DNA of 64,000 nucleotides, taken from IMG/VR virus record IMGVR_UViG_3300045789_000880, one strand, 5' to 3'. Under the pieces are notes generated by a model. The model had not been told where the DNA came from, did no database searches, and saw nothing but the letters and a program-made list of their open reading frames with translations. A program made the translations under genes and the position numbers. Source of the stretch: an uncultured virus (IMG/VR IMGVR_UViG_3300045789_000880). Its lineage: Duplodnaviria; Heunggongvirae; Uroviricota; Caudoviricetes. Shown one piece after another: positions 18,526 to 45,093 of this stretch (the stretch's first letter is position 1; each line of letters begins with the position of its first letter).

Positions 18526-18668
18526 TGGGCAATCGCCGAATTGTTTGACAGGCAAACTACTAAAAGTTGTTTTTCAAAAAGTTTACAAAAGGTTTTTAGA
18601 AGATTTACTTTGGTTTTCACTTGAGTAGGTGTGAATGTTTTTTAACTTGTGGAGTTTACCACTGAATT

Positions 18669-22500: not shown

Positions 22501-22528
22501 ATAGTTAGTATTATATAAATAGTGTGGT

Positions 22529-24037: not shown

Positions 24038-24511
24038 TTACTTCTCTAGTCTATACCGATACCTAAAAACACTAGTCCGTACCACACGATATTTTCCAAT
24101 TACAGTATTCCAACCCAACTGTGTTTTTACACCCAAATCTCGAAATGTCGAACCAGCAATATTTCGGACACGTCCCATTCTTACTAACTCCTCTAAAATA
24201 GCTTCGTCATTAGCAGGTTTTACAGCTTCCTTTTTAGGTGCTACTTTTTCAAGTTCTGGTTGTTCTTCTAGTGCATCTTCAATTTCATTGAACTCTAGTT
24301 TATCGGCATACTCTTCATCGATGTCCTCTAAGATTTCTAAATCCAGTTCTTCAAGTTGTTCGTATAAACTTCCTTTTTCACAATCTGAAACCGTTTCAAG
24401 TAGCTTATACATTCTATCAAAGATTTCTATTTTTTCTTGAATAGGTTGCAATAGTAATTTCTTATCCAGTTTGTTATTCTTCAGGAAAACCTGATGTTCT
24501 ATTTTCTTCAT
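24038..24511 (-). CDS. Hypothetical protein
   Basis: ORF in a tightly spaced minus-strand run. Confidence 0.7.
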   Translation of the reverse strand: MKKIEHQVFLKNNKLDKKLLLQPIQEKIEIFDRMYKLLETVSDCEKGSLYEQLEELDLEILEDIDEEYADKLEFNEIEDALEEQPELEKVAPKKEAVKPANDEAILEELVRMGRVRNIAGSTFRDLGVKTQLGWNTVIGKYRVVRTSVFRYRYRLEK

Positions 24512-24515
24512 AATC

Positions 24516-24761
24516 TTATGTTGTTATTGGGATGAGTTCCTGTTTATCTGCAATAGCATTTTCTAAAACATTAGAAAGTGCTGCGGTTGCAAGAGAGGTG
24601 ACGATAATGATACCGGTTGTTTTTAAAAGTTCGGCACCTCTTGGTATTTGTAGTTTGAACTCCTTTGCTGGGTCATTCTTACCTAAATTATAATAGATGA
24701 GCGCTTCGGCAAAACCTATCGCCAGTCCAGCGCCTGTAATGATTAATACTTTTTTATTCAT
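24516..24761 (-). CDS. Small two-TM membrane protein
   Basis: Two hydrophobic segments. Confidence 0.7.
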   Translation of the reverse strand: MNKKVLIITGAGLAIGFAEALIYYNLGKNDPAKEFKLQIPRGAELLKTTGIIIVTSLATAALSNVLENAIADKQELIPITT

Positions 24762-24763
24762 AG

Positions 24764-25384
24764 TTATTTGGTGGCTTTTTCTTCCATTTTATCATACTTC
24801 GCTTTGATGTCTTTTTCGCCAGCTTCAGCACGTACAAAGTTGATTCCGTAGGTATTCATAATACCTCTGTGTGCGCGGAGCAGAATCTTTTCGGCTTCTT
24901 TCTGCATCTTCACATTATCTTTATGCGCTGGCGGAATCAAATTAGCAATCGCGATAAAATGATTCTTGATTTTAGTGTGGCGCATTGGCTTGGGCTTCTT
25001 AGGCTCATTCTTGCGCTTTTCTTCATTAAATCGTTTGATTTTTAACCGACACGCCTTGATGTCTTTACTCAAACTATCCAGTTCTTTCTTAACGGTTTTA
25101 GTAGGTTCTTTGTCCTTTTTTGGAGCATCCTTTTTAGAATCAGATGATTCTTTTTTAGACGTCTCTTTAGGTTCCTTCTTTTCCGCTTTCTCAGCTTTTA
25201 TAGCTTTAGGAGCAAGACGTTCCACTAACAGAAAAACCTTCTCGATATTTTCTTTGGCAATCTCTTCAAAAGCCTTTTTATCGTTAGTTTCTTTGTAGTC
25301 ATCCAGTATGTCCTGCACAGCAGTTTGTAATGCTTCAGGTTGCACATTGCTCATATCGAGCGCTTGTAATTGTTGTATGGTCAT
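24764..25384 (-). CDS. Lys/Glu-rich hypothetical protein
   Basis: ORF, operon spacing. Confidence 0.7.
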   Translation of the reverse strand: MTIQQLQALDMSNVQPEALQTAVQDILDDYKETNDKKAFEEIAKENIEKVFLLVERLAPKAIKAEKAEKKEPKETSKKESSDSKKDAPKKDKEPTKTVKKELDSLSKDIKACRLKIKRFNEEKRKNEPKKPKPMRHTKIKNHFIAIANLIPPAHKDNVKMQKEAEKILLRAHRGIMNTYGINFVRAEAGEKDIKAKYDKMEEKATK

Positions 25385-25393
25385 CGTTTATTT

Positions 25394-25708
25394 TTAAGCT
25401 GCGATTAATAATTCTAGTTCCAGAAGGTCTAACGCTCGGGCACGTTCTTTTTCTTGAAGGCGTATGATTTCTTTAGCATCACTACGTGTATCTTTCTGTT
25501 GCATTTTAGGATGCAACATCTCATATAAAAGTGCATCTGCTTCTTGGGCTTTCACATCAGATTTACTAAAATCTTCAGAAGTTGATTTAATTACTTCCCA
25601 AGCCTTTACAGGATCAAGTTTACTACCTGTGAGATCTACAATTTCATCTTGATTTTTAATCTTCAACGCCTTGAGCGCATCCTTGGTTATATTCTTAGTT
25701 TTATACAT
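25394..25708 (-). CDS. Hypothetical protein
   Basis: ORF ending RARALDLLELELLIAA. Confidence 0.7.
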   Translation of the reverse strand: MYKTKNITKDALKALKIKNQDEIVDLTGSKLDPVKAWEVIKSTSEDFSKSDVKAQEADALLYEMLHPKMQQKDTRSDAKEIIRLQEKERARALDLLELELLIAA

Positions 25709-25711
25709 TTT

Positions 25712-26038
25712 CTATAATTTATGATCTATGGCATATTGTTGATTGTAAAGCGGTTCCAGCGACCAGATAAAATCATTGGCTTCTTCCTGGTCTGCATAAT
25801 GAATAGAACATAGTTGTGACGTTCCATCAGTTTTGAAACATTCGTAGCGGTAGCATTGCACGGGATTGTCAATGTTAGAAATATCAATCGTAGTCCAACG
25901 CAGTATTAATATGTTTTTACGCATAGTAGAAACCATAATCTGAAAATCTCTACATTGGGCTGTACAAGCCTTATTGATGTCAATCGCTCTGTCCATTATC
26001 TTGTAAATGACGCTTTGCTTTAAGGTTTTCTTATCCAT
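25712..26038 (-). CDS. Hypothetical protein (start re-assigned to ATG 26038)
   Basis: MDKKTLKQ start overlaps the stop of the upstream gene. Confidence 0.6.
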   Translation of the reverse strand: MDKKTLKQSVIYKIMDRAIDINKACTAQCRDFQIMVSTMRKNILILRWTTIDISNIDNPVQCYRYECFKTDGTSQLCSIHYADQEEANDFIWSLEPLYNQQYAIDHKL

Positions 26039-27044
26039 TCGGCTGCAACTGATTTTTATAGTTGGTAATGATTTGTGAGATTTCCTTAACTGCCGAATCC
26101 ATCGAATAACTTTGTTCAAACACGAAGCCTTTTGGGTTGATTGCTTTCGCGAAAGCGGTACCCATACTAACCGAAATAGTTCCCAAACCAGAAGGAATCG
26201 TGAGACCGAAATAATTGCTCATCGCCACCAAAGATTTAAACCCACGAAACCTGAAATAACGTGGGTCACTACTCATCAATAGCAATTGGTTTTTATCCAG
26301 TTTATCCTGAAAGCGTTTTACGCGCACACAACCCATCGTAACCTGATTATTGAAAGAAGTTCCCAACATCACATTCACTTCAACCGAAACGCCACGCAGT
26401 TCCATAAACTCCACAAGTTCTGCACAAGCCAGACCTACATAAAGCAAATCATTACCCTTTATGTGGGCATTTGCACCAGCCATTATATATAGTTGAAGCG
26501 ATGGATACGACATTTGCTTGTCCTTGAAATAGGCAAATACGCTCTTTACCGAAGTCAATACTTTCTTGTTACCCAACTCAATATTCATCTGACTTACAGA
26601 GGTGTTGAGTGGCGAAGTCGTATTAATAGGAAACTGTTGATACATTCCCATTGCAGCACGCTCAAAGGAGAACACGCCAAGACCACGATCATTATAAGCC
26701 ATCTTTGGTTTTGGCAATACAGAATCGTTGAGATATTGTAAATAATGTGTGAGTTTCTCTTTGATTTTTGGCTGAATCTTAGCAACTAGAGGCATCCCCA
26801 AAAAGGTACGATGTTCGTTGAGTTCCTTGATGCCTTTTGGTGTTGGTGTACCATACCAATCTGTTCCGCTACGCAGTTGACTATCGGTACTTTCTTCAAT
26901 AAATTCCCAACGCGATTGATTTGCAGATGATAGATTTTTAGTCTCAACATCTACAAAAGCGTTGAAAGCAAAGACACTATCAAATAAAAGATAGTTGTAT
27001 TTGCCATCAGGACTTTTATGGGTATGTTGTTTTGGTGCGCTCAC
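26031..27044 (-). CDS. vWA-like partner of MoxR-type AAA+ ATPase (tentative)
   Basis: Alpha/beta pattern LQLYIMAGAN..LVEFMELRGVSVEV..VRVK..YFRFRGF; GTG start. Confidence 0.55.
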   Translation of the reverse strand: MSAPKQHTHKSPDGKYNYLLFDSVFAFNAFVDVETKNLSSANQSRWEFIEESTDSQLRSGTDWYGTPTPKGIKELNEHRTFLGMPLVAKIQPKIKEKLTHYLQYLNDSVLPKPKMAYNDRGLGVFSFERAAMGMYQQFPINTTSPLNTSVSQMNIELGNKKVLTSVKSVFAYFKDKQMSYPSLQLYIMAGANAHIKGNDLLYVGLACAELVEFMELRGVSVEVNVMLGTSFNNQVTMGCVRVKRFQDKLDKNQLLLMSSDPRYFRFRGFKSLVAMSNYFGLTIPSGLGTISVSMGTAFAKAINPKGFVFEQSYSMDSAVKEISQIITNYKNQLQPNG

Positions 27045-27312
27045 GTATGCTCATAAAAGTAAATTTTGAGGTGGTGTGAATTGCGTAACACATTTGTATT
27101 TAGATACGCTTCATCGAATAATCTGACAATTAATTTAAAAAAAATGAAATTGTTAAAGATTTTATTTATTTTAGAAACGCGAAAAATAATTGCAAGCTCA
27201 ACAGATTTCTCCCTTAGATCTTTTTGACAGAAACAAACCATTTATCAAAATACAATGGCTCAGTTTCTATTGCTTTTAATCAAGAAATTAGCTCAATCGA
27301 AGTAACCAAAGT

Positions 27313-28797
27313 ATGAACATAATTAGTGAGAATCCTTACCGAATTGCAGGCATCTTGTCTAATGTTACTGAAAAAGAACTACAGAAACAAAAAAGCAAAA
27401 TTAAAAGATACGGTGAAGTCGGAAAACAGATTACATCAGATTATGATTTTCATTTTTTAAAAAACGTATCACGCTCTGAAAAATCTATAGAAAAGGCATT
27501 TTCTGATATACAACAGAATCAAGATAAGGTAAGGAAATCACTTTTTTGGTTTATTAATGTTTCCCCATTTGATGAAACAGCAATAAATCATCTAAAAAAT
27601 AATGATCTCGATAAGGCAAAAGAAATTTGGCAAAAAGTTACTATTGGTAAAGAACTAAGTCCAAAAAACTTTTCTTGTTTCAGCAATTTATCGACGCTCA
27701 ATCTAATGAGTACTGATCAAAAAAATCTAAAAGAAGCCATTGAGAGTAAAATTCAATTGATAGAATCAGATTATTTCAAAGATTTTGCACATACGATCTC
27801 TGATGAAACCTTTACCGTTGACCAACAAAGACAAATAGAATATTTTATTGATGACATTCTAAGTGAATTAAACATCGTAAAACGGTTTGATATAAGTTCT
27901 CTTTTTGAAGGAATTAATGGAAGCTCAAAAAAATATCTTTTAAAACAGTTCACAGAAGAACCAATTCATAGTATTGAAAATGCTATTGAATCAACTAAAT
28001 CAAAAAGAAAATTAGATAAATCGAAAGCGTATGAGTTAGGTTCAAAGCTATTTAAGAATACTAAAGAAGATTTAACAAACCTCAAGAATACGCTCGGAGA
28101 AAATGATTTAAAATTCAAAATGCTCTCAGATATCCTTGCTAATGAAATTATGCAATGCGGCATAGACTATTTTAAATCTGAAAAGGACAAAAAAGATCCA
28201 AGCAATGAATGTTTAGAGCTTTTAAATTTTTCTGAATCCATAGCTATAGGTCAAAAGGCTAAGGACCGAATTATAAGTAACAAAGAAGGTATTAATGACT
28301 ACAAAAATCGTGACATTGAAGAGGCTATAAGCCTACTTGATAGTATAGCAAATCTGCATAAAAACTTGAGAACTGATCAAAAGATAGATTCCTACAAAAT
28401 CACCAAATTATTAAGGGAAAATCTTACTTCACAACTAATGACTAAGGTTATTAAATCGAACAAAGAAACAGTGAAGCGTTTCTACGTAAAATTAATAAGT
28501 CTTCAGTTGTGGATTCCCAACAATAGTTTTTTGAAAAAAGTAGAACGTCTATTTTTTGAAGGACTTAAAGATAGTCATCCAGCTAAAGCAGATATTCAAA
28601 AAATTAGAGACTTAAGATTAAAACAAAAAGCAGAAGAAAAGACTGCTAGAAATAAAAAAGTCTTGATAGTAATTGGGGTAATCGCTTTAGCTCTCCTAAT
28701 CATTTATGGAATATGGGGAATGGACGGTCTTGAGACTGTAGGAATAATAGTGTTTATTATAGCCTTTTTCGGGATTGTTGGCTATTTGAGACAATAA
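27313..28797 (+). CDS. Degenerate J-domain-like, helical-repeat protein with C-terminal TM pair
   Basis: NPYRIAGI..KELQKQK..IEKAFSDI; no HPD motif; paralog of the next gene. Confidence 0.6.
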   Translation: MNIISENPYRIAGILSNVTEKELQKQKSKIKRYGEVGKQITSDYDFHFLKNVSRSEKSIEKAFSDIQQNQDKVRKSLFWFINVSPFDETAINHLKNNDLDKAKEIWQKVTIGKELSPKNFSCFSNLSTLNLMSTDQKNLKEAIESKIQLIESDYFKDFAHTISDETFTVDQQRQIEYFIDDILSELNIVKRFDISSLFEGINGSSKKYLLKQFTEEPIHSIENAIESTKSKRKLDKSKAYELGSKLFKNTKEDLTNLKNTLGENDLKFKMLSDILANEIMQCGIDYFKSEKDKKDPSNECLELLNFSESIAIGQKAKDRIISNKEGINDYKNRDIEEAISLLDSIANLHKNLRTDQKIDSYKITKLLRENLTSQLMTKVIKSNKETVKRFYVKLISLQLWIPNNSFLKKVERLFFEGLKDSHPAKADIQKIRDLRLKQKAEEKTARNKKVLIVIGVIALALLIIYGIWGMDGLETVGIIVFIIAFFGIVGYLRQ

Positions 28798-28874
28798 TTT
28801 ACAAAATGAGGAAACCCGTAAATAGTTAAATTAAAAAAAGAATATTTTAACCACCGAACTAACTAAGTAAAAGA

Positions 28875-30647
28875 ATGAAATTAATAAGTCATAATCCTTA
28901 TCGCGTAGCTGGCATCTTATCAAATGTTACGGAAAAAGAATTACAGCGACAAAAGAGTAAAATTAAAAGGTATAGTGAGGTTGGTAAACAAATTACTTCA
29001 GACTATGATTTTAGTTTTCTTGAAAATATTGATAGGTCAGAACAAACTATTGAGTCGGCGTTTTCGAGTATAGAACAAAGCCAAGATAAAGTTAGGAATT
29101 CTTTATTTTGGTTTCTAAATGCAAACACATTTGATAATACAGCACTTGATTATCTCAAGAATGGAGATTTAAAAAAAGCTCGCGAAATTTGGGAAAAGGT
29201 AACGATAGGCAAAGCTGTAACTGATAAAAACTACTCATCGTTCAATAATATCTCCACCCTTAATTTATTAAGTACTCGTGTTGAGGATATTAAAGAAGGA
29301 GTTGAAGGGAAAATACAGCTTTTAGAATCTAATTCTTTTAAGGATTTTGCGCACACTATCTCTGACGAGACTTTTACAGCTGATAGTGATAAGCAGATTG
29401 AATATTTCATTGATGATATTTTAAATCAGCTTAAGACATCCAATAGTCAGCTGGATATAAATGATCTTTTCTCTGGTGTAAATGGAACTGCAAAAAAGTA
29501 TATATCCAAACAATTTACTGAAGAGCCAATACATAATATCGAAAGTGAGGTTGAATCCACAAAAACAAAAAGAAAAACTAACAAGTCAAATGCTTATGAA
29601 TTTGGTTCGAGACTATTCGGTAATTGCAAAGATGATTTAGCTAAGCTCAAGAAAATACTTGGAGCAAATGATTTGAGATATAAAATGCTTTCTGACTCTT
29701 TAGCAGAAGAAGTAATGCAATGTGGTATAGATTATTTCAAAGAATGGAAAGAAACTAAAGATCCAAGTGAAGAAGGCTTAAGATTATTAAAGTATGCAAA
29801 GTCTATTGCGTCAAGTAAAAAAACAAAAGACAGAGCTAATGACAATATAGAGTCGCTGGAAGAATGGTCTAAAAACGCACCTATCCAAGCTGATTTGTCA
29901 TACGTTACCAATCAACTTAAAAGCTTTCAAGATACTCAGGATAGCACAAACAATGCTTTACGTTTAGTAGAAAACTGTAAGCCGAAGCTGACTAATATGG
30001 GTTATACATTAGGTAAGAATGATGAGTTCTATTTAAACGTTAGCAGCGCGGTTGCTAGTAATAGTTTAGGAATGCTTATTTCTGTTGTAAACGAAGCTCA
30101 AGAATCTTTTGGAAATCAGCCACAATTTATGAGAACGATTGAGCCTTTAAAAAGGACAATCAAGGAAGCATTGAGAGTTACTAATATCATCGATCTACTT
30201 GATATGAATGATCAAGCTAGAATCCATTTTAATCAAAATAGAAGCGCTCTCCGAAATATTGAAAGTCAAATCTTTAATGCTACTGCCACCTCTGCTGAAA
30301 AAGCTGGTAGACTGGCTGGTCAAGCAGCCAAAGTAACTGCACGAGCCGGTCGTGCATCCGCAAAAGCCGCAGGCACTTTTGCACAAGAAATGCGCGATAA
30401 AAAGAAAAGTGATGGCGGTGGTTGCTATATAGCTACAATGGCTTACGGCGATTACGACCATCCCCAAGTAATTGAACTCAGAAAATTTAGGGATAACTAT
30501 TTAAGCAAATCATCGCTAGGAAGGCACTTTATTGAATTTTATTACAAAAATTCGCCTAATTGGGTGGAGAAACTTAAAAATAAAACAACCATTAATCAAA
30601 CTATTAGATATTCGTTGAATATGCTGATTTCAATAATTAAGAAATAA
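28875..30647 (+). CDS. Degenerate J-domain-like protein with C-terminal CFI-box-CTERM
   Basis: Same N-terminal ~330 aa as the previous gene; GGGCYIATMAYGDYDHPQVIELRKFRD..FYYKNSP. Confidence 0.75.
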   Translation: MKLISHNPYRVAGILSNVTEKELQRQKSKIKRYSEVGKQITSDYDFSFLENIDRSEQTIESAFSSIEQSQDKVRNSLFWFLNANTFDNTALDYLKNGDLKKAREIWEKVTIGKAVTDKNYSSFNNISTLNLLSTRVEDIKEGVEGKIQLLESNSFKDFAHTISDETFTADSDKQIEYFIDDILNQLKTSNSQLDINDLFSGVNGTAKKYISKQFTEEPIHNIESEVESTKTKRKTNKSNAYEFGSRLFGNCKDDLAKLKKILGANDLRYKMLSDSLAEEVMQCGIDYFKEWKETKDPSEEGLRLLKYAKSIASSKKTKDRANDNIESLEEWSKNAPIQADLSYVTNQLKSFQDTQDSTNNALRLVENCKPKLTNMGYTLGKNDEFYLNVSSAVASNSLGMLISVVNEAQESFGNQPQFMRTIEPLKRTIKEALRVTNIIDLLDMNDQARIHFNQNRSALRNIESQIFNATATSAEKAGRLAGQAAKVTARAGRASAKAAGTFAQEMRDKKKSDGGGCYIATMAYGDYDHPQVIELRKFRDNYLSKSSLGRHFIEFYYKNSPNWVEKLKNKTTINQTIRYSLNMLISIIKK

Positions 30648-31582
30648 TGAGAGATAAAATTATATTACTTTTTTTATTAGCCACTGGGACAATGTTTGCT
30701 CAAGTAAATGATTCCACGTTGGTAAGGGATATTCAAGTCATTCAAAATAGCTTACAACAACAGCAAGCTGAATATAATGGCTTGTCGAGTAGACTCAACA
30801 ATCAGCAATATGTGATTAACAAGCAACGTAATTTATTAGATGACTTTGAAAAGAATTCAAAAGCCCAGAAAAAAACGATTGATAGTCTTTTACAGCTAAT
30901 CAATACCAATGGTCAAAATATTAAAACGAATTCTCAAGAGTTAGGAACAAAAATCCAAACTGCCAAAAAGGAAACCAATACAAAACTATCTCAAATAGAT
31001 GATACTATTGATAGTAATCAACTTTATTGGATTTTAGGAACAGCGGGTACGATTCTTTTAGGAGGACTTATGTATTTCTTCTTAGGCAAAAGAATTAAAA
31101 CAAGTAAGAGCGACGTTGAAGTACAAATTAGAAACACGAAGAAAGCCCTTGAAGAAGAAAGTGTCAAGCTAGATAGTAAGCTAGTTGAAGTTTTAGACAC
31201 CCAATTGAAGTTGAAAAGCGAAGAAGTTAAGATTTCTTCTAAGTCACCTGAAACTACGGATCATTCTTTAGCTCTCAAAGTTGCTGATGAAATTATCAGA
31301 ATACAGAAAAACCTGAGCAGAATGGACGATTCTACTAAGGGACTCAAGCAATTAAATTCTTCCGTAAAACGAATACAAGACAACTTTGCGGCAAACGGCT
31401 ATGAATTAGTTGAGATGCTTGGAAAAGAATTTAATGAGGGATTGAAGGTTACAGCGAATTTTGTCCCAAGTGAAGACCTAGAGACAGGCAAACAAGTTAT
31501 ATCAAGAATAATCAAACCACAAGTGAATTATAAGAATAAGATGATTCAAGCAGCTCAAATAGAAGTTAGTGTTGGTGAATAA
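30647..31582 (+). CDS. Membrane-anchored GrpE-like protein
   Basis: Signal peptide, coiled coil, TM, then GYELVEMLGKEFNEG..ISRIIKPQVNYKNKMIQAAQIEV GrpE-like head. Confidence 0.65.
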   Translation: MRDKIILLFLLATGTMFAQVNDSTLVRDIQVIQNSLQQQQAEYNGLSSRLNNQQYVINKQRNLLDDFEKNSKAQKKTIDSLLQLINTNGQNIKTNSQELGTKIQTAKKETNTKLSQIDDTIDSNQLYWILGTAGTILLGGLMYFFLGKRIKTSKSDVEVQIRNTKKALEEESVKLDSKLVEVLDTQLKLKSEEVKISSKSPETTDHSLALKVADEIIRIQKNLSRMDDSTKGLKQLNSSVKRIQDNFAANGYELVEMLGKEFNEGLKVTANFVPSEDLETGKQVISRIIKPQVNYKNKMIQAAQIEVSVGE

Positions 31583-31592
31583 AATAAAAAAA

Positions 31593-34115
31593 ATGACAAG
31601 AACAAAAATAGATTACGGAATAGATTTAGGTACAACTAATTCAGCCATATCAAGAATGGAAAATGGTGAACCTACTATTAAAAAGACTGATACGTTAAAA
31701 GATACTATGCCTTCTTGTGTATATATTAACAAGAAGAAATCAATTCAAGTTGGGGATAGCGCTTACAATGCTTTAAAAAGAGATAAGCTTAAAGCAATGG
31801 GAACTTGGAATAGCGAAAATGATAATTCTTTCATTGAGTTTAAAAGAACAATGGGTACTGATAAAAAGTACTCAAGTAAAAATTTAGGAAAAGAACAATC
31901 ATCTGAAGAATTATCGGCTGAAGTTCTTAAGACTCTTAAATCTTTTATTAAAGATGAGAATGTAAATTCCATTGTAGTCACCGTACCAGCAGCTTTTAAG
32001 AACAATCAAATTGATGCAACAAGAAGAGCTGGTAAATTGGCTGGCTTCGACCATATAGAGATACTCCAAGAACCTGTGGCCGCATCAATGGCTTATGGAC
32101 TTGAAAATAATAAGAAAGATGGATTCTGGTTAGTTTTTGATTTTGGAGGAGGAACTTTTGATTCTGCTCTTTTAAAAGTTGAAGACGGTATTATGAAAGT
32201 TATAGATACTGAAGGAGATAATTATTTAGGAGGTAAAAATTTAGACTTTGCTATTGTAGATGAAATCATTCTTCCTTACTTAGAGAATAATTTCTCCATC
32301 AATTCTATTTTAGAAGATGACGATAAAAAGCAAATTTTAAGAAATGCGATGAAATTCTATGCCGAAGAAACCAAAATCAAACTTTCTTTTAATGAAACAC
32401 ATAATATACTATCCGATTTAGGAGATATTCCTGGAGAAGATGATGAAGGTGAAGAATTTGAGCTTGATATAACAGTTACTCAAGAGGATATAACTAGAGC
32501 TTTAGCTCCTGTCTTTCAAAAAGCAATTGATACTTCAACACAGTTATTGGAAAGAAATAATCTCAAAGGAAATTCATTAGAGTCACTTATACTTGTTGGT
32601 GGGCCTACTTTCTCACCTGTGTTAAGGAAAATGTTGGAAAAACAAATTTGTAAACCTGACACAAGCGCAGATCCTATGACGGTAGTTTCCAAAGGAGCTG
32701 CTCTTTATGCATCTACAGTATCGATATCAGATGAGGTAAGAGAACAAACTAGAGATAAAACCAAAATTCAAATAGAGATTGGACACGAAGCGTCTACAGT
32801 AGAAATTGAGGAATTTGTTACACTAAAAATATTAGAGGAGAAAACAGATGGAGAAATACCCGATGCCGTTTTTGCAGAGATAACCAGAGGCGATAAAGCT
32901 TGGTCTAGTGGTAAAGTAGAAATCAACGCTATTGGTGAGGTTATAGATACCCAACTCAATGAAGGGAAAACCAATATTTTTGAAGTACTATTATATGATG
33001 GTAAAGGAAACTTATTAGAGAGTGAACCTAGTTCATTTAGTATCATTCAAGGGTCAAAAATAGGTAGTGCAACATTACCTTATAATATCGGAATAGAACT
33101 TAAACAAAAGGCATCAGGTAAAATTGTTTTCACAACTGTTAAAGGCTTAGAGAAGAATCAATCCCTTTCTGCAACAGGGATTTTAAACGGACTTAAAACT
33201 CAAAAGCAAATTCGTCCAGGAATGGATTCAGATTTTATCAAGATTCCTATTTATCAAGGAGAACACGATTCTGAAGGGACAAGAGCAATCTATAACGAAC
33301 ACGTTTATGATATAATTATAAGCGGTGCTGATCTTCCTGCATTATTACCAGAGAACAACGATGTTGATTTGACAATAAATGTCGACAAATCTCAGAAATT
33401 ATCAGTGCAAGCTTATTTCCCATACTTAGATCATACTGCAGAAATAGATGTTCCTACAGATAATGTTCAATCTGTTGAAACGAGTTGGTTACAGAATGAG
33501 ATTAGAAAAGCAAAAGGCAGTCTTGAAGAATTACAACAAGAGGGAAGCAATCCTAAACTTGATAAAATCAGTAAGGATTTGGAAACTTTAGAGCAATCTT
33601 TCAATAACAACAAGAATGATTTAGATGGAAAACAAGAGGTTCTTACTAATCTTAGAAGATCATTAAAAGTTATAGATGAACTAGGTAATCAAACAGAGTG
33701 GCCTAAACTTGAAGAATCACTCAAAGAAGAGTTCTACAGATTAGAGAAAATAAATGGCGAGCTAGGTAATGATAAATCTACCGAACAAGTCAACGAATAT
33801 AGAGGCCAGTTAGATGATGTAATTAGATCTAAAGATGTAAAATTAGGGAATCAACTGCACGAAGAAATTCACAGCTTCTTTTTCCAGTTGACATTTATCT
33901 ATCAACTCATAGGATTTATTCAGCAGCACGATGAACATTTTGGCTCATTCAATTGGAGAGATAGTAATAAAGCAAGAACTCTATTAAATAGAGGAAAGCA
34001 AATTATTAGTGAAAATCCAGACGTAGATGATTTACATCCAGTGATTATTTCACTTATTGATCTTTTACCTATGGACGAGAGACCTAGTGGTGATGATTCT
34101 GTTTTGGTAGGTTAA
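31593..34115 (+). CDS. Specialised Hsp70-family protein (about 840 aa; start re-assigned to ATG 31593)
   Basis: GIDLGTTNS, TVPAAF, EPVAA, FDFGGGTFD, LGGKNLD, LVGGPT; extended non-DnaK C-terminus. Confidence 0.92.
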   Translation: MTRTKIDYGIDLGTTNSAISRMENGEPTIKKTDTLKDTMPSCVYINKKKSIQVGDSAYNALKRDKLKAMGTWNSENDNSFIEFKRTMGTDKKYSSKNLGKEQSSEELSAEVLKTLKSFIKDENVNSIVVTVPAAFKNNQIDATRRAGKLAGFDHIEILQEPVAASMAYGLENNKKDGFWLVFDFGGGTFDSALLKVEDGIMKVIDTEGDNYLGGKNLDFAIVDEIILPYLENNFSINSILEDDDKKQILRNAMKFYAEETKIKLSFNETHNILSDLGDIPGEDDEGEEFELDITVTQEDITRALAPVFQKAIDTSTQLLERNNLKGNSLESLILVGGPTFSPVLRKMLEKQICKPDTSADPMTVVSKGAALYASTVSISDEVREQTRDKTKIQIEIGHEASTVEIEEFVTLKILEEKTDGEIPDAVFAEITRGDKAWSSGKVEINAIGEVIDTQLNEGKTNIFEVLLYDGKGNLLESEPSSFSIIQGSKIGSATLPYNIGIELKQKASGKIVFTTVKGLEKNQSLSATGILNGLKTQKQIRPGMDSDFIKIPIYQGEHDSEGTRAIYNEHVYDIIISGADLPALLPENNDVDLTINVDKSQKLSVQAYFPYLDHTAEIDVPTDNVQSVETSWLQNEIRKAKGSLEELQQEGSNPKLDKISKDLETLEQSFNNNKNDLDGKQEVLTNLRRSLKVIDELGNQTEWPKLEESLKEEFYRLEKINGELGNDKSTEQVNEYRGQLDDVIRSKDVKLGNQLHEEIHSFFFQLTFIYQLIGFIQQHDEHFGSFNWRDSNKARTLLNRGKQIISENPDVDDLHPVIISLIDLLPMDERPSGDDSVLVG

Positions 34116-34126
34116 ACATTAGAACT

Positions 34127-34819
34127 ATGATTAAAAAATTAATTTTTCCTTTTATACTCATACTACTTGTATGTTCAAGTTGTGAATCTGAAGCTGAGAG
34201 ATCCCAAAGACTAGTTAAAGAAGAAAAGCAGCGCATTGAATTAAAAGAACAAGTAGAACAAAAAGAAAGAGAACGTCAATTTCAAATAGAACAAGAACGT
34301 GTAGCGAAAGAGGAAAGAGATGAACTAGAAAGAGTTCGCCGAGCGAAACTAGAGGAGGAAGAAAGAAAAAGGAAGGAAATTTTTGATAAGTATATTAATA
34401 ATTCACTTAGAAATGGGGCAACTCCTTATTCATATTGTTTTGGAGGAAATAAATCTTGTTCGGACTACGGCTGTTCTCAAATAAAAGTCAAAACGCCTTT
34501 CAATTCGGACGTTATGGTTACGATTAAGAAGAATGATGAAGTTTACAGGCACGCTTTCATAAAAGCTGGAAGTAGATATACATTTGAATTTCCTAACGGC
34601 ACCTATCAAGCCTTCTTTTATTACGGTAAAGGGTGGAATCCTAGTAAAGTAATGAAACAAGTAAGTTGTGGCAGTTTGAAAGGTGGTTTTATTACTGATG
34701 AATTGTTTAGTAAAGACAATCCACAAAGTTTAAATAATAATATACTGGAATATGAATTGGTTTTACAGCAAAACGGAAATTTCAGCACAAAGCCAAGTAA
34801 TTTGGATGAGGCATTTTAG
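34127..34819 (+). CDS. Putative lipoprotein/exported protein with coiled coil and beta domain
   Basis: MIKKLIFPFILILLVCSSC leader. Confidence 0.65.
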   Translation: MIKKLIFPFILILLVCSSCESEAERSQRLVKEEKQRIELKEQVEQKERERQFQIEQERVAKEERDELERVRRAKLEEEERKRKEIFDKYINNSLRNGATPYSYCFGGNKSCSDYGCSQIKVKTPFNSDVMVTIKKNDEVYRHAFIKAGSRYTFEFPNGTYQAFFYYGKGWNPSKVMKQVSCGSLKGGFITDELFSKDNPQSLNNNILEYELVLQQNGNFSTKPSNLDEAF

Positions 34820-36595
34820 ATGAAAAAAAATCAATACATATTACCTAAAGGACATCAAGTTGATGAGAAATACACTGTTACTTTCTCACTGAAGAAAGGG
34901 AGTTATGCCGAAGCCTATAGGGTTAAAGATCTGGAAGGAAAGACAAAATTTCTAAAACTATTTCTACATACGAAACTAGATAGAACCCAGTATGATAAAG
35001 AAGGGAATGTTCTAGAGGTTAAAATACTCTCCACATTGAGCCATCCTAATATCGTAAATTATGTAGATAGCGGTTCATTGATTTTTGAAAATCAAAAATT
35101 AGATTTTGTGGTATTAGACTTCGTAAGTGGCGAGACCATTGCAGATAAAATGAAGCGAGACTCGTCCTTGAGTATATATGAAGCAAAGGATATAATATCA
35201 GGAGTACTAAATGGGCTGAATCATCTTCATAATTTAGATAGTCCAATTATCCATAACGATGTAACCAACCTTAATGTAATGGTTGACCTCTCTGGAAAAA
35301 TACATATTCCGAAACTTATCGATTTTGGGTATGCAAGATATGAGAAGCAGTCAAATAAAGATTTTTTAAAAGATGGACTCAATGTATTTTATACCGCTGA
35401 GGAGTCTTTTAATAAGGTTTTTACCGTCCAGACGGATGTGTTTTCGGTCGGCGCTTTGTATTACCATATGCTCATTGGTCTTCCGCCTTGGTTTTTTGAA
35501 ATATCTAAGTATAAAGCTGATAAGGATAAATTAGAAGATCTTGTTATTGAGGAAAGAAAAAAGCCTTTGCAGTTTGATAACAAGAACGTCAAAATTGATG
35601 CGTTAACCAAAAATGTAATTATAAAAGCTTTACAGCCTGAAGCTGAGAATCGTTTCAAAAATATAAAAGAGTTTATTCAGGCTATTAATGGTGAACTTGA
35701 GTTAGATGAAATTCAAGCTAAAAAGGAGACTATAAAAGTTAAACCAAAGAAATTAAAGGCTGGTCAAGGCTTTAAATCTATCGCAGGAATGCAAGATTTA
35801 AAAGACACGATTAGAGTAGATGTCATAGATGCCTTAAACGAGAAAGAACGCTATGCAGAGTATGGACTTACAATACCAAATGGGATGCTCTTATATGGAC
35901 CACCTGGTTGCGGTAAGACGTTTTTTGCAGAAAGAATGGCAGAAGAAATCGGATTTAATTTTTATCAAATTAAACCATCAGACATTCAGAGTAAATGGGT
36001 CAACGCTTCTCAAGAAAATATTAACAAACTTTTTTCAGAAGCAAAAGAACACGCCCCAAGTATCATTTTTATAGACGAATTAGATGCTTTAGTTCCTAAT
36101 AGAGACAATAATAGCGTCAATCATATGAACACTAGCGCTGTAAATGAGTTTCTCGCTCAAATGAATAATTGCGGAGAAGATGGCGTTTTCATAATCGGTG
36201 CGACTAATAGACCTAACGCCATAGATCCTGCAATGCTGCGTGCAGGAAGACTCGATAAGATGATTTATCTACCACCTCCAGATTTAGAGGCTAGAGAATT
36301 AATGTTTAAGATGTATTTAGACAAAAGACCCAGAGAGTTAGGATTAGATTATTCCGCTTTCGCGAAAGCGACAGAAAACTATGTGTCCAGTGATATTAAA
36401 TTTTTGTGCGATGAAGCATCCCGCACAGCTCTGAAAACGAAATCAAGAATCTCTAAAGAGATACTTCTCAAGACCATCAAAAATAACAGACCATCAATTT
36501 CACTAGCTGAGCTTAATAGCTATATAAAAATAAAGGCTAAAATGGAAGGCTTATCAGAATCTAATAATAACAGACCTAGTATAGGTTTTAAATAA
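34820..36595 (+). CDS. Ser/Thr kinase - AAA+ ATPase fusion
   Basis: KGSYAEAY, IIHNDVTNLN, IDFG, DVFSVG; GPPGCGKT, IFIDELD, GATNRP, RAGRLD; ends RPSIGFK. Confidence 0.92.
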   Translation: MKKNQYILPKGHQVDEKYTVTFSLKKGSYAEAYRVKDLEGKTKFLKLFLHTKLDRTQYDKEGNVLEVKILSTLSHPNIVNYVDSGSLIFENQKLDFVVLDFVSGETIADKMKRDSSLSIYEAKDIISGVLNGLNHLHNLDSPIIHNDVTNLNVMVDLSGKIHIPKLIDFGYARYEKQSNKDFLKDGLNVFYTAEESFNKVFTVQTDVFSVGALYYHMLIGLPPWFFEISKYKADKDKLEDLVIEERKKPLQFDNKNVKIDALTKNVIIKALQPEAENRFKNIKEFIQAINGELELDEIQAKKETIKVKPKKLKAGQGFKSIAGMQDLKDTIRVDVIDALNEKERYAEYGLTIPNGMLLYGPPGCGKTFFAERMAEEIGFNFYQIKPSDIQSKWVNASQENINKLFSEAKEHAPSIIFIDELDALVPNRDNNSVNHMNTSAVNEFLAQMNNCGEDGVFIIGATNRPNAIDPAMLRAGRLDKMIYLPPPDLEARELMFKMYLDKRPRELGLDYSAFAKATENYVSSDIKFLCDEASRTALKTKSRISKEILLKTIKNNRPSISLAELNSYIKIKAKMEGLSESNNNRPSIGFK

Positions 36596-36602
36596 TATAA
36601 AA

Positions 36603-37127
36603 ATGGAATCAACACATTTAGATAAATTACTGTTAAGAACAGCATTTTCCTGTATGGCCTGTGATGGCGATATAGATGATAGTGAAATAAAACTGATTAA
36701 AGAATTGCATAAATCCCAAAAAACATTTGGAGATGTAAACATTGATGAAGAGTTAAACGCTCTCCTTTCTAAAATTAACAGTGAAGGAGCTTCCTTCTTG
36801 AAAGACTACTTCACACTATTAGCTCAGTCTCAACTAACAACCTCAGACGAGTTGAAATTAATAGAAGTGGCTATTGATACGATTAAAGCAGATGATAAGG
36901 TAGAATATAGTGAGATTAAATTCTTTAAAGTGATTCGATCTAAACTAAATATAGACAATGAAGCTATATTAGATGTACATCCAGATTTTGAAGAATATTT
37001 AGAAGAAGATATCATTAGTGATTCGTATCTGGCTAGACTTCAAGATGATTTTTTTAAGGACCAGGAGCTACCTCAGTTCGATTTGCTTATTAATGTAAAC
37101 GATTCAAACACTAAAAGTGATAGCTAA
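36603..37127 (+). CDS. TerB-family protein
   Basis: MACDGDIDDSEI and IKADDKVEYSEI duplicated TerB motifs. Confidence 0.8.
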   Translation: MESTHLDKLLLRTAFSCMACDGDIDDSEIKLIKELHKSQKTFGDVNIDEELNALLSKINSEGASFLKDYFTLLAQSQLTTSDELKLIEVAIDTIKADDKVEYSEIKFFKVIRSKLNIDNEAILDVHPDFEEYLEEDIISDSYLARLQDDFFKDQELPQFDLLINVNDSNTKSDS

Positions 37128-37422
37128 ATTTTTAAAATTTGGTCTTGCAATACTCCTGTTGCTGTGCCTCTTAGATATGCCTTATGGTTTCTATCAGTTA
37201 GTACGATTTATAGCTTTAGCAGTTTTTGGTTTTTTAGCTTACGATGCAAATCAAAGAAAACAAAACGCGCTTGTTGTTATTTACGGTGTTTTAGCATTGT
37301 TGTTTCAGCCTTTTTTTAAAGTTGCGCTTGGAAGAGATTTGTGGAATATGGTTGATGTTGTCGTTGCGGTATTTCTAATAGGAAGTCTATTGCTCCCATT
37401 CCAAAACAAAGATGAAAGATAA
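37117..37422 (+). CDS. Small multi-TM protein (DUF6804-like)
   Basis: MPYGFYQLVRF..LFQPFFKVALGRDLWNMVDV. Confidence 0.7.
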   Translation: MIAKFLKFGLAILLLLCLLDMPYGFYQLVRFIALAVFGFLAYDANQRKQNALVVIYGVLALLFQPFFKVALGRDLWNMVDVVVAVFLIGSLLLPFQNKDER

Positions 37423-38308
37423 AATAATACAGGATTACATAAAAATGATTTCAAGCTACGGTTCTCTTATATACAAAGAGGCAGAAAATAGCTGGAAAGG
37501 AATTAGTAAGGTACATCCTGAACCCAAAATAGTCCAAGACTATTTGCTATCTCAAGGAAAAGGAGTCGATTATTTAAATCATACTGTTTCAAAAAAAATA
37601 CTTGATGAAACCAGATATGAAATGAAATTTGCATCAGTTTATTGCCATAAAAAACCAACAATTCAAAGAACAGTTGATTCTAAGAAAAACTGCAAAGGAA
37701 GCAGTCCAGGTTGTGAACTTGGAGATCTTATGATTGTATTTGTTTTATTAGACAAGAATAAATCTATAGTGCATTCTACAGCCAAAATAATGCAGGCAAA
37801 AAAACACGACAAGTTAGACTCAGAATCGCAAAAGTGTTTATACGAATCTGATTTAGACTTTGAAATGCCCAATAATTTGGTATCACATTCTACTAATAAA
37901 AATAAGTTGAGGGTTTTACCCAATTTCAATGAAAATAGGCATAATGCGTTGTCGTATTTAATCATTAGACCACGATCTATTAAAACTGTTGCAATTCCTT
38001 ATCACTCTAATGTTCAAAACCAATGGGGATCTGAACTAAAAAATATAATGGAACTTAAAACAGGACTGAGTTTTAATCCTCCGAGAGACATTACAAGCAA
38101 TAACTGGGATTGTATTATCAATGATCTTTTAAATATTGGCAGAGGCTTAGTTAAAAGCTCCACAAAGCGTGGATACGGATTGGATTATTTTAAGGATAGA
38201 TTTAATTTTTTCTTATTTTTTCCTGAGTACAAGCAAGAAAATGAGTCAGAAGGAATGTCTCAACTGTTTGTTTTTTGTAAGGATACAGAGCTGTCTGTAA
38301 ATAATTGA
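37412..38308 (+). CDS. Putative restriction-endonuclease-fold protein
   Basis: CELGDLMIVF..KIMQAKK resembles a PD-(D/E/Q)xK active site. Confidence 0.5.
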   Translation: MKDKIIQDYIKMISSYGSLIYKEAENSWKGISKVHPEPKIVQDYLLSQGKGVDYLNHTVSKKILDETRYEMKFASVYCHKKPTIQRTVDSKKNCKGSSPGCELGDLMIVFVLLDKNKSIVHSTAKIMQAKKHDKLDSESQKCLYESDLDFEMPNNLVSHSTNKNKLRVLPNFNENRHNALSYLIIRPRSIKTVAIPYHSNVQNQWGSELKNIMELKTGLSFNPPRDITSNNWDCIINDLLNIGRGLVKSSTKRGYGLDYFKDRFNFFLFFPEYKQENESEGMSQLFVFCKDTELSVNN

Positions 38309-38454
38309 AATAATTGTACTTCACAATTAGTATAGTGTTTGCATACCAAAAAGCTATCTTTCTTCTTTCCAAAAAAATTACATTTAAATACTCAAATAAT
38401 GAGATATGTAATAACAATTTTTATCTTTAGAAATTGCAAATCAAAATTTCCATT

Positions 38455-38658
38455 ATGAACCGAATTAAAGAGGTTTTAGAGAAAAAAGGAATTAAACAAA
38501 AATGGTTAGCCCAGCAGCTAGGCAAAAGCTATAATATGGTTAACGCCTATGCGCAAAACAGACAGCAACCTAGGTTAGAGATTTTAAATAAAATCGCTGT
38601 TATCCTAAATGTTGACGTCAGAGAATTAATCGTACCGAACAAAATAACGAATGACTAA
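38455..38658 (+). CDS. XRE-family HTH regulator (R-M controller-like)
   Basis: MNRIKEVL..KQKWLAQQLGKSYNMVNAYAQNRQQP; overlaps hsdM. Confidence 0.85.
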   Translation: MNRIKEVLEKKGIKQKWLAQQLGKSYNMVNAYAQNRQQPRLEILNKIAVILNVDVRELIVPNKITND

Positions 38659-40807
38659 CGAACAATTAAAAGACCTAGAAGATAAGTTATGGGACAGTGC
38701 AAACGCACTACGTGCTTATGGTGGCCTTAAGGCAGCAGACTATGCAGTACCAGTACTGGGACTCATTTTTCTCAAGTTTGCAGATAATAAATATAGCCAG
38801 CACGAAACCCAAATCAATAAAATCTTAGCCGACGAAAAAGGCACGCGTGTAGAACGTAGTATCGATAAAGTAGCCATTGCAACCTGTGGTTTTTATTTAC
38901 CAGAAGAAGCCCGTTTTGACTACTTGCTCAACCTACCTGGAGACACTAGTCTGGCAACTGCCCTGCGTAAGGCAATGGAAGGCATAGAAAAATACCAAGA
39001 CGCAAAATTTCAAGACGTACTGCCTACCGAAGCATACTTTGAAATAGAAAAAAAGAAAGCAGATATACTACCGCAACTGCTCAAAAGCTTTAGTGACATT
39101 CCTAAAGATGCCTCTGGCGATGTTTTTGGGAAAATCTATGAATATTTCTTAGGAAAATTTGCTCTGAGCGAAGGACAAAAAGGTGGTGAGTTCTTTACAC
39201 CTACCTCTGTGGTGCGATTTATTGTAGAAGTCATAGAACCCTACAAAGGTAAAATATACGACCCAGCCTGCGGTTCTGGTGGGATGTTTGTACAATCTGC
39301 CACGTTTATAAGAGAAGCAAACCACGACCTAAACGATATTTACGTTTGCGGTCAGGAATATATGGGCGAGACCGTACGACTGGCAAAAATGAACTTACTG
39401 GTAAACAACCTACGTGGGCAAATTTATGAGACCAACTCCTATGAAAACGACCCACATAACAGTTATGGTAGTTTTGATTATGTAATGGCAAATCCACCAT
39501 TTAATGTCAAGTCTGTAAAGGAAAGCACCGTTAAAAATGATAAGCGATTTTACGAGTACGGCTTACCCAAAAATAAAGGCAAAAAAGATGATAAAATAAG
39601 TGATGCCAACTATTTATGGATTTCGCTATTTGCTACCTCATTAAACGCCACAGGTCGTGCAGGCTTTGTAATGCCTAACAGTGCCAGCGATGCCCGCAAC
39701 TCAGAGTATGAAATACGCAAGAAAATAGTAGATAGCGGCATTGTAGACTGTATGGTCAGTATGCCGTCTAATATGTTTTTTACCGTAACGCTGCCGGCTA
39801 CGCTTTGGTTTTTTGATAAGGCAAAAGTACAGACCGACCGTAAGGATAAAATCCTTTTTATAGATGCCCGCAATGTTTATAAACAGATAGACCGCGCGCA
39901 CCGTGAGTGGACAGAAGAAAACCAACTTAACCTTGCTGCCATCGTACGTCTGTATCGTGGCGAGCAAGAGCGTTACCTGTCATTAATTAATCAGTACATC
40001 ACAAAAGCACGCACCGCAAGTGAAGCTGTGCTACCACATAAAGAAGGCCTAGAAAAAGAATTAAAAAAGCTGGTAGATAACCTTACCGCTTACGCGAAAA
40101 CGTCTAAAGAAGAAAAACGCACGCCAGCAAAAAAGAAAGCGCTAGCCGAAACAGACTTTTACAACACGCTAGAAAATTACAAGCGCACACAGCCTGAAGC
40201 TAACGAAACACTCATTGAGGCTTCAATGTTTACCTCTGGGGAAGTACCTGTACTGAGCGGAGTCGACGTACCGCTAGATAACGAAGCACAAAAACAAGCA
40301 ACACCACATTTGCAGTGGAACGTTACCCAAAACAGTAATGACTCAGCTGCGATTAAAAAAGATATTAAAGCGATAACCGATTTATATAAAATAGCCGATA
40401 AAAACCTAAAGCTCAAAAGTGACAAACTATGGTCCAGTCACCACCTCTCACGAGCAGATAAACCGCTAGAAGAAGCGTTACAAGTCTACATAGAAGCGAT
40501 AGAGCAAGAAGCCTATTGGGTAGCACAGATTAGCTGGCTACAAGACCGTTTTCCAGATGCGGAATATAAAGATGTAGTGGGATTATGTAAGTTGGCAGAT
40601 AAAGTGGAGTATGTAGAGGAACAGGATTATTCTTTGAATGCAGGGCGTTATGTTGGCGTCGATATGGAATTATCAGACATTTCTGAAGAAGATTTTAATA
40701 CTAAAATGAATGAAAATGTCAATCTATTAAAGCACTTAACAAATTCATCCGTGGTTATTGAGAAACGCATTTTCAAAAACTTGAATACCTTGATTTATAA
40801 TGATTGA
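38651..40807 (+). CDS. hsdM: Type I R-M methyltransferase subunit
   Basis: GEFFTP, YDPACGSGG, ANPPFN, DYSLNAGRYVG. Confidence 0.95.
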   Translation: MTNEQLKDLEDKLWDSANALRAYGGLKAADYAVPVLGLIFLKFADNKYSQHETQINKILADEKGTRVERSIDKVAIATCGFYLPEEARFDYLLNLPGDTSLATALRKAMEGIEKYQDAKFQDVLPTEAYFEIEKKKADILPQLLKSFSDIPKDASGDVFGKIYEYFLGKFALSEGQKGGEFFTPTSVVRFIVEVIEPYKGKIYDPACGSGGMFVQSATFIREANHDLNDIYVCGQEYMGETVRLAKMNLLVNNLRGQIYETNSYENDPHNSYGSFDYVMANPPFNVKSVKESTVKNDKRFYEYGLPKNKGKKDDKISDANYLWISLFATSLNATGRAGFVMPNSASDARNSEYEIRKKIVDSGIVDCMVSMPSNMFFTVTLPATLWFFDKAKVQTDRKDKILFIDARNVYKQIDRAHREWTEENQLNLAAIVRLYRGEQERYLSLINQYITKARTASEAVLPHKEGLEKELKKLVDNLTAYAKTSKEEKRTPAKKKALAETDFYNTLENYKRTQPEANETLIEASMFTSGEVPVLSGVDVPLDNEAQKQATPHLQWNVTQNSNDSAAIKKDIKAITDLYKIADKNLKLKSDKLWSSHHLSRADKPLEEALQVYIEAIEQEAYWVAQISWLQDRFPDAEYKDVVGLCKLADKVEYVEEQDYSLNAGRYVGVDMELSDISEEDFNTKMNENVNLLKHLTNSSVVIEKRIFKNLNTLIYND

Positions 40808-42152: not shown

Positions 42153-42155
42153 TAA

Positions 42156-42178
42156 TTGTCCCTCATTTTGGGGGACAA
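42156..42178. repeat. Short hairpin between hsdS and the yhcG-like gene
   Basis: TTGTCCCTCA-TTT-TGGGGGACAA. Confidence 0.5.
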
Positions 42179-42193
42179 ATCAAAATACAGCAA

Positions 42194-43252: not shown

Positions 43253-43256
43253 TATA

Positions 43257-45089: not shown

Positions 45090-45093
45090 ATCT

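Follow-up and report, generated by a model that had tools for sequence, protein, structure and literature searches.

Gene content of the locus and the conserved unit

The locus described here lies in a 64,000-nucleotide (nt) stretch of DNA (the window) from an uncultured Caudoviricetes virus (IMG/VR record IMGVR_UViG_3300045789_000880). Positions 27313-38308 hold nine open reading frames (ORFs), all on the + strand and, as a preliminary description of the sequence had stated, mostly abutting (the gaps between genes 1 to 9 in order are 77, -1, 10, 11, 0, 7, -11 and -11 nt). They encode two J-like proteins without the HPD motif, a membrane-anchored GrpE-like protein, a long Hsp70, a lipoprotein, a Ser/Thr kinase fused to an AAA+ ATPase, a TerB-family protein, a small membrane protein and a putative nuclease. 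The labels given earlier to the Hsp70, the kinase-AAA, TerB and the small transmembrane (TM) protein, a member of DUF6804, agree with Pfam matches; the J-like and GrpE-like proteins match no Pfam family, and genes 1, 3, 5 and 9 belong to no named family.

Searched across GTDB genomes, the cassette genes were traced to 73 loci (from the best 80 of 109 confirmed matches), nearly all in Bacteroidota; the gene counts reported here use only loci with enough flank. The J-like gene is present in 58/59 loci, the GrpE-like gene in 63/64, the kinase-AAA gene in 63/63 and terB in 49/54, and the genes always follow one another as J-like, GrpE-like, Hsp70, kinase-AAA, TerB. Judged by this comparison, the conserved unit (hereafter the cassette) consists of a J-like protein, a membrane GrpE-like protein, an 840-amino acid (aa) Hsp70, a variable slot, the kinase-AAA and TerB, often with DUF6804. 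The core of the gene set put forward earlier is thereby retained with its order, but the nuclease and the second J-like gene are not conserved, and by gene content the nine genes do not form one nine-gene system.

The cassette was found in 3 of 301 genomes of the family. Across the phylum, 6 of 401 genomes, belonging to six different families, have a full-length J-like gene (three weaker matches, one of them a fragment, were dropped); in five of these six the J-like, GrpE-like, Hsp70 and kinase-AAA genes follow each other in order, and the sixth ends at a contig edge. The J-like family comprises 1,039 clusters at 50% identity (E up to 1e-30). The five-gene core is also found on a plasmid of Haliscomenobacter, with a SIR2 gene on one side and BREX on the other, and two copies of the cassette lie on IMG/VR contigs. 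GenBank phages gave no J-like match, and Hsp70 matches only at the level of the nucleotide-binding domain.

The J-like and GrpE-like proteins

J-like protein 1 (27313..28797, +; 494 aa) has a J-like N-terminus, a TPR-like helical solenoid and two C-terminal TM helices, at 445 and 466. J-like protein 2 (28875..30647, +; 590 aa), the core gene, shares the N-terminal 330 aa of the first and ends in a CFI-box-CTERM (NF041770, E 1e-22 in NCBIfam). Because the two are sisters in the tree (support 99; 66% identity over 326 columns), they are best read as a local duplication that left one TM-anchored and one CFI-box version. A pair of J-like genes was considered as a feature of the system and rejected: a second full-length J-like gene occurs in 0/54 other loci, and the second J-like piece at one of them (L002) is only 205 aa long.

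In profile-profile comparison the J-like family matches DnaJ domains with an E of 5e-5 over 18 columns, against 0.3-0.8 for three control profiles. The AlphaFold model of gene 2 (predicted local distance difference test score, pLDDT, 89.6; predicted template modelling score, pTM, 0.58; 55 sequences) is all-helical, and its helices at 8-11, 20-36, 56-65 and 69-76 follow the order of a J-domain, after which the modelled chain continues as a helical solenoid. Fold searches with the model returned generic TPR or helical-repeat matches only and barely covered the N-terminal J-like part, a PDB sequence search with the J profile gave no J-domain match, and ESM Atlas proposed an Ftn2/ARC6 ARM domain (score 0.77), which we treat as a lead only. 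Because the fold searches gave only generic repeats, confidence in the J-like label of genes 1 and 2 is moderate and the label is not proven. Part of the earlier description, "HPD-less J-like", can be stated outright, since HPD was found in 0/62 J-like proteins, which have a conserved Val-Gly-Lys instead.

The first 330 aa are constant in the family and the tail varies: 17 homologues end in a TM helix, 21 in a CFI-box and 21 in a coiled coil (often with a beta domain), and one tail is unassigned. On a tree built from the constant part (59 rows; two gappy rows omitted), the tail switches type 24 times. Shuffling the labels gives a similar figure, 28.1 +/- 2.3, and a value as low was reached in 30 of 500 shuffles. 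Tails thus appear to swap freely between membrane anchors and periplasmic domains. The CFI-box (window 30420-30640 and 21 related loci), for which no account was found in a literature search on the term CFI-box-CTERM, alternates with a C-terminal TM helix in an otherwise cytoplasmic protein, and this interchangeability suggests that it is a membrane anchor. Four of 18 long J-like homologues scanned have an FGE-sulfatase domain in the tail; such domains probably bind molecules of the invader directly (Kaur et al. 2020, PMC7159879; here and below, statements on cited work refer to the parts of each source available to us). At another locus a NACHT-FGE-sulfatase gene lies directly upstream of the cassette (L213:7531-10533), FGE being fused to the J-like protein in other homologues.

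The GrpE-like protein (30647..31582, +; 311 aa), a core component, has a signal-like N-terminus, a coiled coil, a TM helix at about 128-146 and a GrpE-like C-terminus. Its label, like that of the J-like proteins, comes from profile comparison: hhalign aligns it to GrpE over 94 columns (E 2e-4, probability 45; three control profiles, E 0.3-0.8) and to proteobacterial mini-GrpE with a probability of 86.5. It is a putative exchange factor of the GrpE fold.

The long Hsp70 and its predicted insulation from housekeeping DnaJ

The Hsp70 (31593..34115, +; PF00012), a core gene product, is 840 aa long when translated from the ATG at 31593, the length assigned to it previously; the alternative start of the ORF caller, a GTG at 31569, would give 848 aa. 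Its ATPase motifs are intact (the phosphate loops and the equivalents of Lys70, Glu171 and Thr199), and D11, K84, E160 and T188 are invariant in 28 homologues. Where the hydrophobic linker would be expected there is an insert of about 110 aa, which matches neither the DnaK linker nor the substrate-binding domain (SBD). Beyond the insert, from about position 495, a divergent substrate-binding beta domain is followed by a long helical tail; PDB sequence searches with the C-terminus gave no SBD match, and the assignment is that of a single pairwise profile match to DnaK (111 columns, E 0.0014). The site of Arg167 is occupied by Glu156. Glu is found here in all 66 sequences, out of 71, in which the motif was found, Arg in four canonical DnaKs, and Val, Ser or Ala in five proteobacterial relatives. 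In NCBIfam the protein reaches 218 bits, the cut-off for dnaK being 822, and a canonical DnaK is also present in all five carriers tested.

In the canonical pair, His33 of DnaJ bonds the DnaK linker and Asp35 bonds Arg167, and HPD has been essential for the stimulation of Hsp70 by J-domains in every system tested (Mayer 2021, PMC8215388). The J-like protein has no HPD, and its Hsp70 has neither Arg167 nor a hydrophobic linker, so that this Hsp70 appears to be insulated from the housekeeping DnaJ. This joint loss is the strongest mechanistic clue that the sequences offer, and from it we infer a private, non-canonical J-Hsp70 interface. A structure prediction of the J-like protein with Hsp70 scored 0.57, compared with 0.00 for the best control, with contacts agreeing between runs to at least 79% and a pLDDT of at least 85 for the partners. 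Of 157 solved pairs, 116 attained the mark that this pair passed, as did 2 of 215 mismatched ones; at scores up to 0.60, only 18 solved pairs attained it, together with both mismatches. The pass lends weak support to a complex and may reflect likeness to the solved DnaK-DnaJ complex.

In 7/73 loci (L007:13243-15858, L019:13085-15130, L049, L050, L058, L063 and L016) the gene directly before the kinase-AAA gene encodes a second Hsp70, whose nucleotide-binding motifs are degenerate and whose tail is often shortened. This protein is possibly a decoy or an Hsp110-like co-factor.

Relatives of the long Hsp70, with 27-30% identity over the full length, are encoded on plasmids of Pseudomonas, Sinorhizobium, Aminobacter and Vibrio. 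In all five proteobacterial regions viewed, the long Hsp70 follows a mini-GrpE of 114-118 aa and has a large helical partner alongside; restriction, Gabija-like and toxin-antitoxin genes are found in these neighbourhoods, and the Vibrio copy adds an AAA protein with the same Ile-Gly-Phe end as the kinase-AAA of the cassette. The Bacteroidota J profile did not detect the helical partners, which may be called J-like from their position and an N-terminal NPF motif. Two of them (L157:6097-8622 and L158:14475-15326) have a TM helix and periplasmic, apparently peptidoglycan-binding domains, and therefore point to the envelope again.

The kinase-AAA, TerB and accessory genes

The kinase-AAA (34820..36595, +; 591 aa; PF00069 and PF00004), encoded by a core gene, joins a Ser/Thr kinase to an AAA+ domain of the Cdc48/FtsH type, for which CDC48 and FtsH rank first in NCBIfam. 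It ends in Ile-Gly-Phe, which we take to recall the loop of ClpX that docks on ClpP. K366, E420, N463 and R477 of the AAA domain are invariant (65/65), and the pore-loop position is aromatic in the same 65 sequences, as in protein-threading motors. The catalytic Asp of the kinase (D147) is kept in 56/65 homologues and missing in 9/65. Because the AAA residues are invariant while the kinase is sometimes dead, the AAA motor would be the likeliest output, rather than the kinase or the nuclease, and the signalling through the kinase proposed earlier is weakened.

TerB (36603..37127, +; 174 aa; PF05099), the product of a near-core gene, has D21, E28 and E104 invariant in 58/58 sequences. Fusions of TerB and J domains, of the DjlA type, are found in the same phylum. 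For the TerB proteins of Bunzi, Shango and Dionysus a role in membrane surveillance has been proposed (bioRxiv 10.1101/2025.09.30.679545). The DUF6804 protein (37117..37422, +; 101 aa; PF20619, E 8e-34) is a frequent accessory small membrane protein, encoded on the cassette strand in 31/54 loci.

The slot between Hsp70 and the kinase-AAA is filled variously by a lipoprotein, a secreted SH3 protein, KilA-N/Bro-N, DUF6804 or a second Hsp70. In the window it holds the accessory lipoprotein (34127..34819, +; 230 aa), with a coiled-coil stalk and a beta-rich domain, whose lipoprotein status is read from a hydrophobic N-terminus followed by Ser-Ser-Cys. It is present in 23/54 loci. Its domain corresponds to no named family (DUF6759 at 0.77 only), and the other secreted slot proteins do not match its profile. 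The same domain is fused behind the TM helix of a J-like protein at L047 (E 7e-17) and in 3 of 150 J-like representatives (P0072, P0166 and P0175), and these fusions tie the lipoprotein to the J-like protein. KilA-N and Bro-N genes enter the slot repeatedly (e.g. L001:12570-13400).

The last gene of the insert

The ninth gene (37412..38308, +) encodes a putative nuclease of the PD-(D/E)xK type with a QAK motif (Q128-A-K130), a motif that we presume to belong to that superfamily. E37, E102, D105, Q128 and K130 are invariant in 21 aligned homologues, in keeping with the nuclease-like label given before, but the protein matches no entry of the family libraries or the PDB, and its single-sequence model (pLDDT 37) was unusable. 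The gene is found in 0/49 cassette loci, and the cassette in none of 27 loci of nuclease homologues, which sit in type I restriction-modification (R-M), BREX and Kiwa neighbourhoods. The nuclease was therefore rejected as the effector of the cassette. A nine-gene system ending in a nuclease is accordingly not supported, nor is a second full J-like gene (0/54) as part of it. By these counts the nuclease is an unrelated defence-island passenger outside the conserved unit. The QAK family inserts alone into the R-M, BREX and Kiwa loci (L174, L175, L177, L183 and L185) and is a candidate stand-alone defence gene.

The carrier element and its cargo

The nine genes constitute one removable cargo insert within a provirus-like element. 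The whole insert, delimited by comparison with an empty site (27099..38379, strand not applicable; about 11.3 kilobases, kb), has a guanine plus cytosine content of 33%, as against 38-40% for the element backbone. The nearest genome compared (G001) carries the same element at 91-93% identity without window 27099-38379, the insert flanks joining across 17 bp; the empty joint (27090 to 38380) is also present in contigs from two read studies, and in two studies contigs extend from the flank across both J-like genes. The mobile element proposed from the sequence was thus borne out. Terminal repeats were looked for at the ends of the insert and none was found, and its promoter and terminator counts are at chance level. 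Read cover is low over the nuclease gene in runs X3 and X5, which was not counted as evidence.

The carrier is a virus-like element of a marine-type bacterium. Its backbone (window 700-18600, 24050-27100 and 51400-64000) includes several endolysin-like genes, an A32/Zot-like ATPase, an AAA_5 ATPase with DUF7192, a methylase and a large strawberry-notch helicase with a DarA C-terminal domain; no capsid or tail genes are recognisable in it and most of its genes have no Pfam or PHROG match. It may represent an undescribed group of Bacteroidota viruses.

Two variable sites adjoin the insert, with defence cargo in both alleles. At one of them (window 18669-23989) the window has Gabija (GajA and GajB) and a 486-aa protein with a weak NERD match, and G001 instead has a Ppl-like PHP-ATPase and a 243-aa unknown gene. 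At the other, downstream of the cassette (window 38651-51418), lie the R-M genes noted earlier, which are of type I, with YhcG and a SLATT_5 gene; G001 has another type I R-M set there, with McrBC. Two GmrSD-domain genes are inserted between hsdS and hsdR of the window's type I R-M.

Proposed function and alternatives

We propose, with about even confidence, that the cassette is a membrane-tethered capture-and-unfold defence, directed against phages or serving a wider conflict, which works through an insulated Hsp70 cycle at the inner membrane. A TM helix, CFI-box or coiled-coil tail would keep the J-like protein at the membrane, where it would recognise a foreign or mislocalised protein at the envelope; a periplasmic domain, present either as a fusion to the J-like protein or as a lipoprotein of its own, would help. 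It would then load the target on its own Hsp70 through an HPD-independent, non-canonical interface, for which the residue changes are plain and the binding is weakly indicated by the complex prediction, and the membrane-bound GrpE-like protein would reset the cycle. Finally, the AAA+ hexamer would thread the captured protein and so unfold or extract it, the fused kinase and TerB tuning this step rather than killing the cell. Of the earlier idea of a private chaperone triad acting with the kinase/AAA, the membrane-linked triad stands, travelling with the kinase-AAA and TerB as mobile cargo, but signalling through the kinase is weakened and a nuclease as the effector is not supported.

The defence cargo in both adjoining sites, the patchy range, the plasmid and IMG/VR copies and the enrichment of defence genes argue for a mobile conflict module. 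The same reading draws on the canonical DnaK of the carriers tested, on the changes of J-like tail, some tails having FGE-sulfatase domains, on the joint loss of the docking contacts and, weakly, on the complex prediction. The scan of the flanks covered the 274 closest of 600 ORFs (within 2.5 kb, at 66 loci); 22 of them, in 18/66 loci, are R-M, GmrSD, BREX, Cas9, MksE, NB-ARC or AbiEii genes by hand count, compared with 0/85 ORFs in 10 arbitrary stretches of nine family genomes (Fisher p 0.003, an overstated value because the genes are not independent). The defence-island enrichment called for as a check was found in this qualified form. In the unbiased phylum sample, three complete copies lie beside HsdM and TIR, MmeI and integrase, or NACHT-FGE genes.

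Several points weigh against a role in defence. Besides the dependence among genes, the count was made by hand and its control is small and unmatched for mobile DNA, and the enrichment may only show mobility. In 48/66 loci there is no strict defence gene within 2.5 kb, and two of the five complete copies in the phylum sample stand among housekeeping genes. PADLOC matched no component beyond the generic kinase and AAA domains, and the cassette has no conserved toxic effector. Both the target and the hand-over from Hsp70 to the AAA motor we purely infer.

A more far-reaching form of the capture-and-unfold proposal is that the cassette represents a new class of protein-targeting immunity, in which an orthogonal, HPD-independent Hsp70 cycle at the inner membrane would capture incoming or assembling phage proteins through swappable trans-envelope receptors and a Cdc48-like unfoldase would receive them; we put this forward tentatively, the balance leaning against it. 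The whole would be a bacterial parallel of endoplasmic reticulum (ER)-associated extraction.

The most serious alternative, though a less likely one, is that the cassette is an accessory module for envelope proteostasis, comparable to ER-associated degradation but bacterial. Under stress it would extract membrane and periplasm-bound proteins that are damaged or mis-sorted, in the manner of HscC-DjlB/DjlC or DjlA-DnaK, and its place in islands would reflect nothing more than its mobility. It would account for the membrane or periplasm link of five of the nine genes, for the secreted SH3 proteins in the slot, for the DjlA-type TerB-J fusions of the phylum and for the many copies among housekeeping genes; HscC, moreover, confers resistance to Cd2+ and ultraviolet light (PMC8215388). 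A prevalence of about 1-2%, scattered over families, speaks against it, as does carriage by a provirus-like element beside defence cargo, and the rapid swapping of J tails together with KilA-N/Bro-N in the slot is more in keeping with an arms race than with a stress that stays the same.

An abortive-infection switch, in which the Hsp70 triad and the AAA domain restrain a toxic kinase until infection releases it, after the model of Stk2- or PD-T4-6-like kinase defence mechanisms, appears improbable. The kinase domain does score against the PD-T4-6, MADS6 and Mokosh kinases of PADLOC, and the window copy has K46, D147, N152 and DFG intact; however, these matches are generic, the catalytic Asp is lost in 9/65 homologues, and the triad of the proteobacterial relatives has no kinase, or an AAA protein that lacks a detectable kinase domain. 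That all nine genes serve one pathway ending in the nuclease is very improbable, for although they share one co-oriented insert in which the nuclease gene overlaps the preceding gene by 11 nt, gene and cassette do not co-occur (0/49 and 0/27 loci) and a near-identical contig of run X3 follows window 32115-37376 and then continues with about 680 letters outside the alignment.

A large family that has lost HPD, Arg167 and the linker together would amount to a naturally orthogonal Hsp70 machine, with a bearing on how chaperones work and on the engineering of insulated ones; bacterial DnaK derivatives have been called unexplored "dark matter" (2026 review, PMC13580251). Protection against phage, if it exists, would make the cassette an immune system built on a dedicated chaperone and unfoldase, in which neither a nuclease nor a pore is conserved. 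As the window holds an intact copy with a mapped empty site, a direct test is possible.

Comparison with known systems

No PADLOC v2 system matched the cassette, in line with the previous remark that it was not recognised as a named one. Eight of the nine proteins gave no match, the kinase-AAA matches single domains only and falls below the NCBIfam cut-offs for MAD6 and IteA, and the cassette does not correspond to the component models of Shango, Bunzi, MADS, PD-T4-6, ietAS or Mokosh. No description was found in a literature search in which supplementary files and most subscription papers were beyond scope, and a candidate list there could hold the operon. The available portions of PMC11019930, PMC13069673, PMC13580251 and bioRxiv 10.64898/2026.10.19.760177 do not describe it.

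Like DnaK-DnaJ-GrpE, the cassette has an Hsp70 with intact nucleotide-binding motifs and a recognisable SBD beta domain, together with J-like and GrpE-like partners, here in one operon. It differs in the 840-aa length of the Hsp70, the 110-aa insert in place of the VLLL linker, the Glu at the Arg167 site, the J partner without HPD and the membrane anchor of the GrpE-like protein, and its Hsp70 is additional to the housekeeping DnaK.

DjlB and DjlC of E. coli are membrane-anchored and form a two-J arrangement. The HscC-DjlB/DjlC machine resembles the cassette as a specialised Hsp70 with private J proteins (PMC8215388). HscC, as described in the available text, is only 550-580 aa long and has no GrpE signature (PMC8215388), unlike the 840-aa Hsp70 of the cassette, with its GrpE-like core gene (63/64 loci); the cassette J proteins, moreover, lack HPD, and a kinase-AAA and TerB follow.

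Among predicted conflict systems, those of the GAP1-N2 GTPases have a private HSP70, GrpE and an FNIII-DnaJ/TPR partner, and sometimes a second, reduced HSP70 (PMC7159879), comparable to the degenerate second Hsp70 of 7/73 cassette loci. They are found in actinobacteria and firmicutes, unlike the cassette, which is mostly of Bacteroidota and includes a kinase-AAA and TerB. No GAP1-N2 GTPase or FNIII gene recurs in the flank clusters or in the 274 of 600 flank ORFs scanned, no GAP1-N2 profile having been searched. With Shango, Bunzi and Dionysus the cassette shares a TerB gene with membrane-associated partners (bioRxiv 10.1101/2025.09.30.679545), but neither the Shango nor the Bunzi model matched its TerB or any other component, and Dionysus, in the available account, has no chaperone and has a pore-forming effector (bioRxiv 10.1101/2025.09.30.679545).

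Hsp70s in predicted or demonstrated conflict loci have precedent (PMC7159879, PMC11090510, PMC12642450). Hsp70 folds occur in defence loci as EACC1-protease-DnaK-like fusions and as the Hsp70-like domains of CoCoNuT systems (PMC12642450, PMC11090510); these domains are degenerate or have no lid and are joined to proteases or to parts of McrBC, whereas the cassette has a full Hsp70 with dedicated co-chaperones. The sensing of phage by bNACHT25 involves the DnaJ of the host (PMC12169576), which makes chaperone-based sensing plausible and is not evidence for the cassette itself. Taken with these systems, the cassette is a variant of the specialised Hsp70 machines, with a widespread gene set that looks undescribed, and there is a genuine possibility that it represents a new class of immunity.

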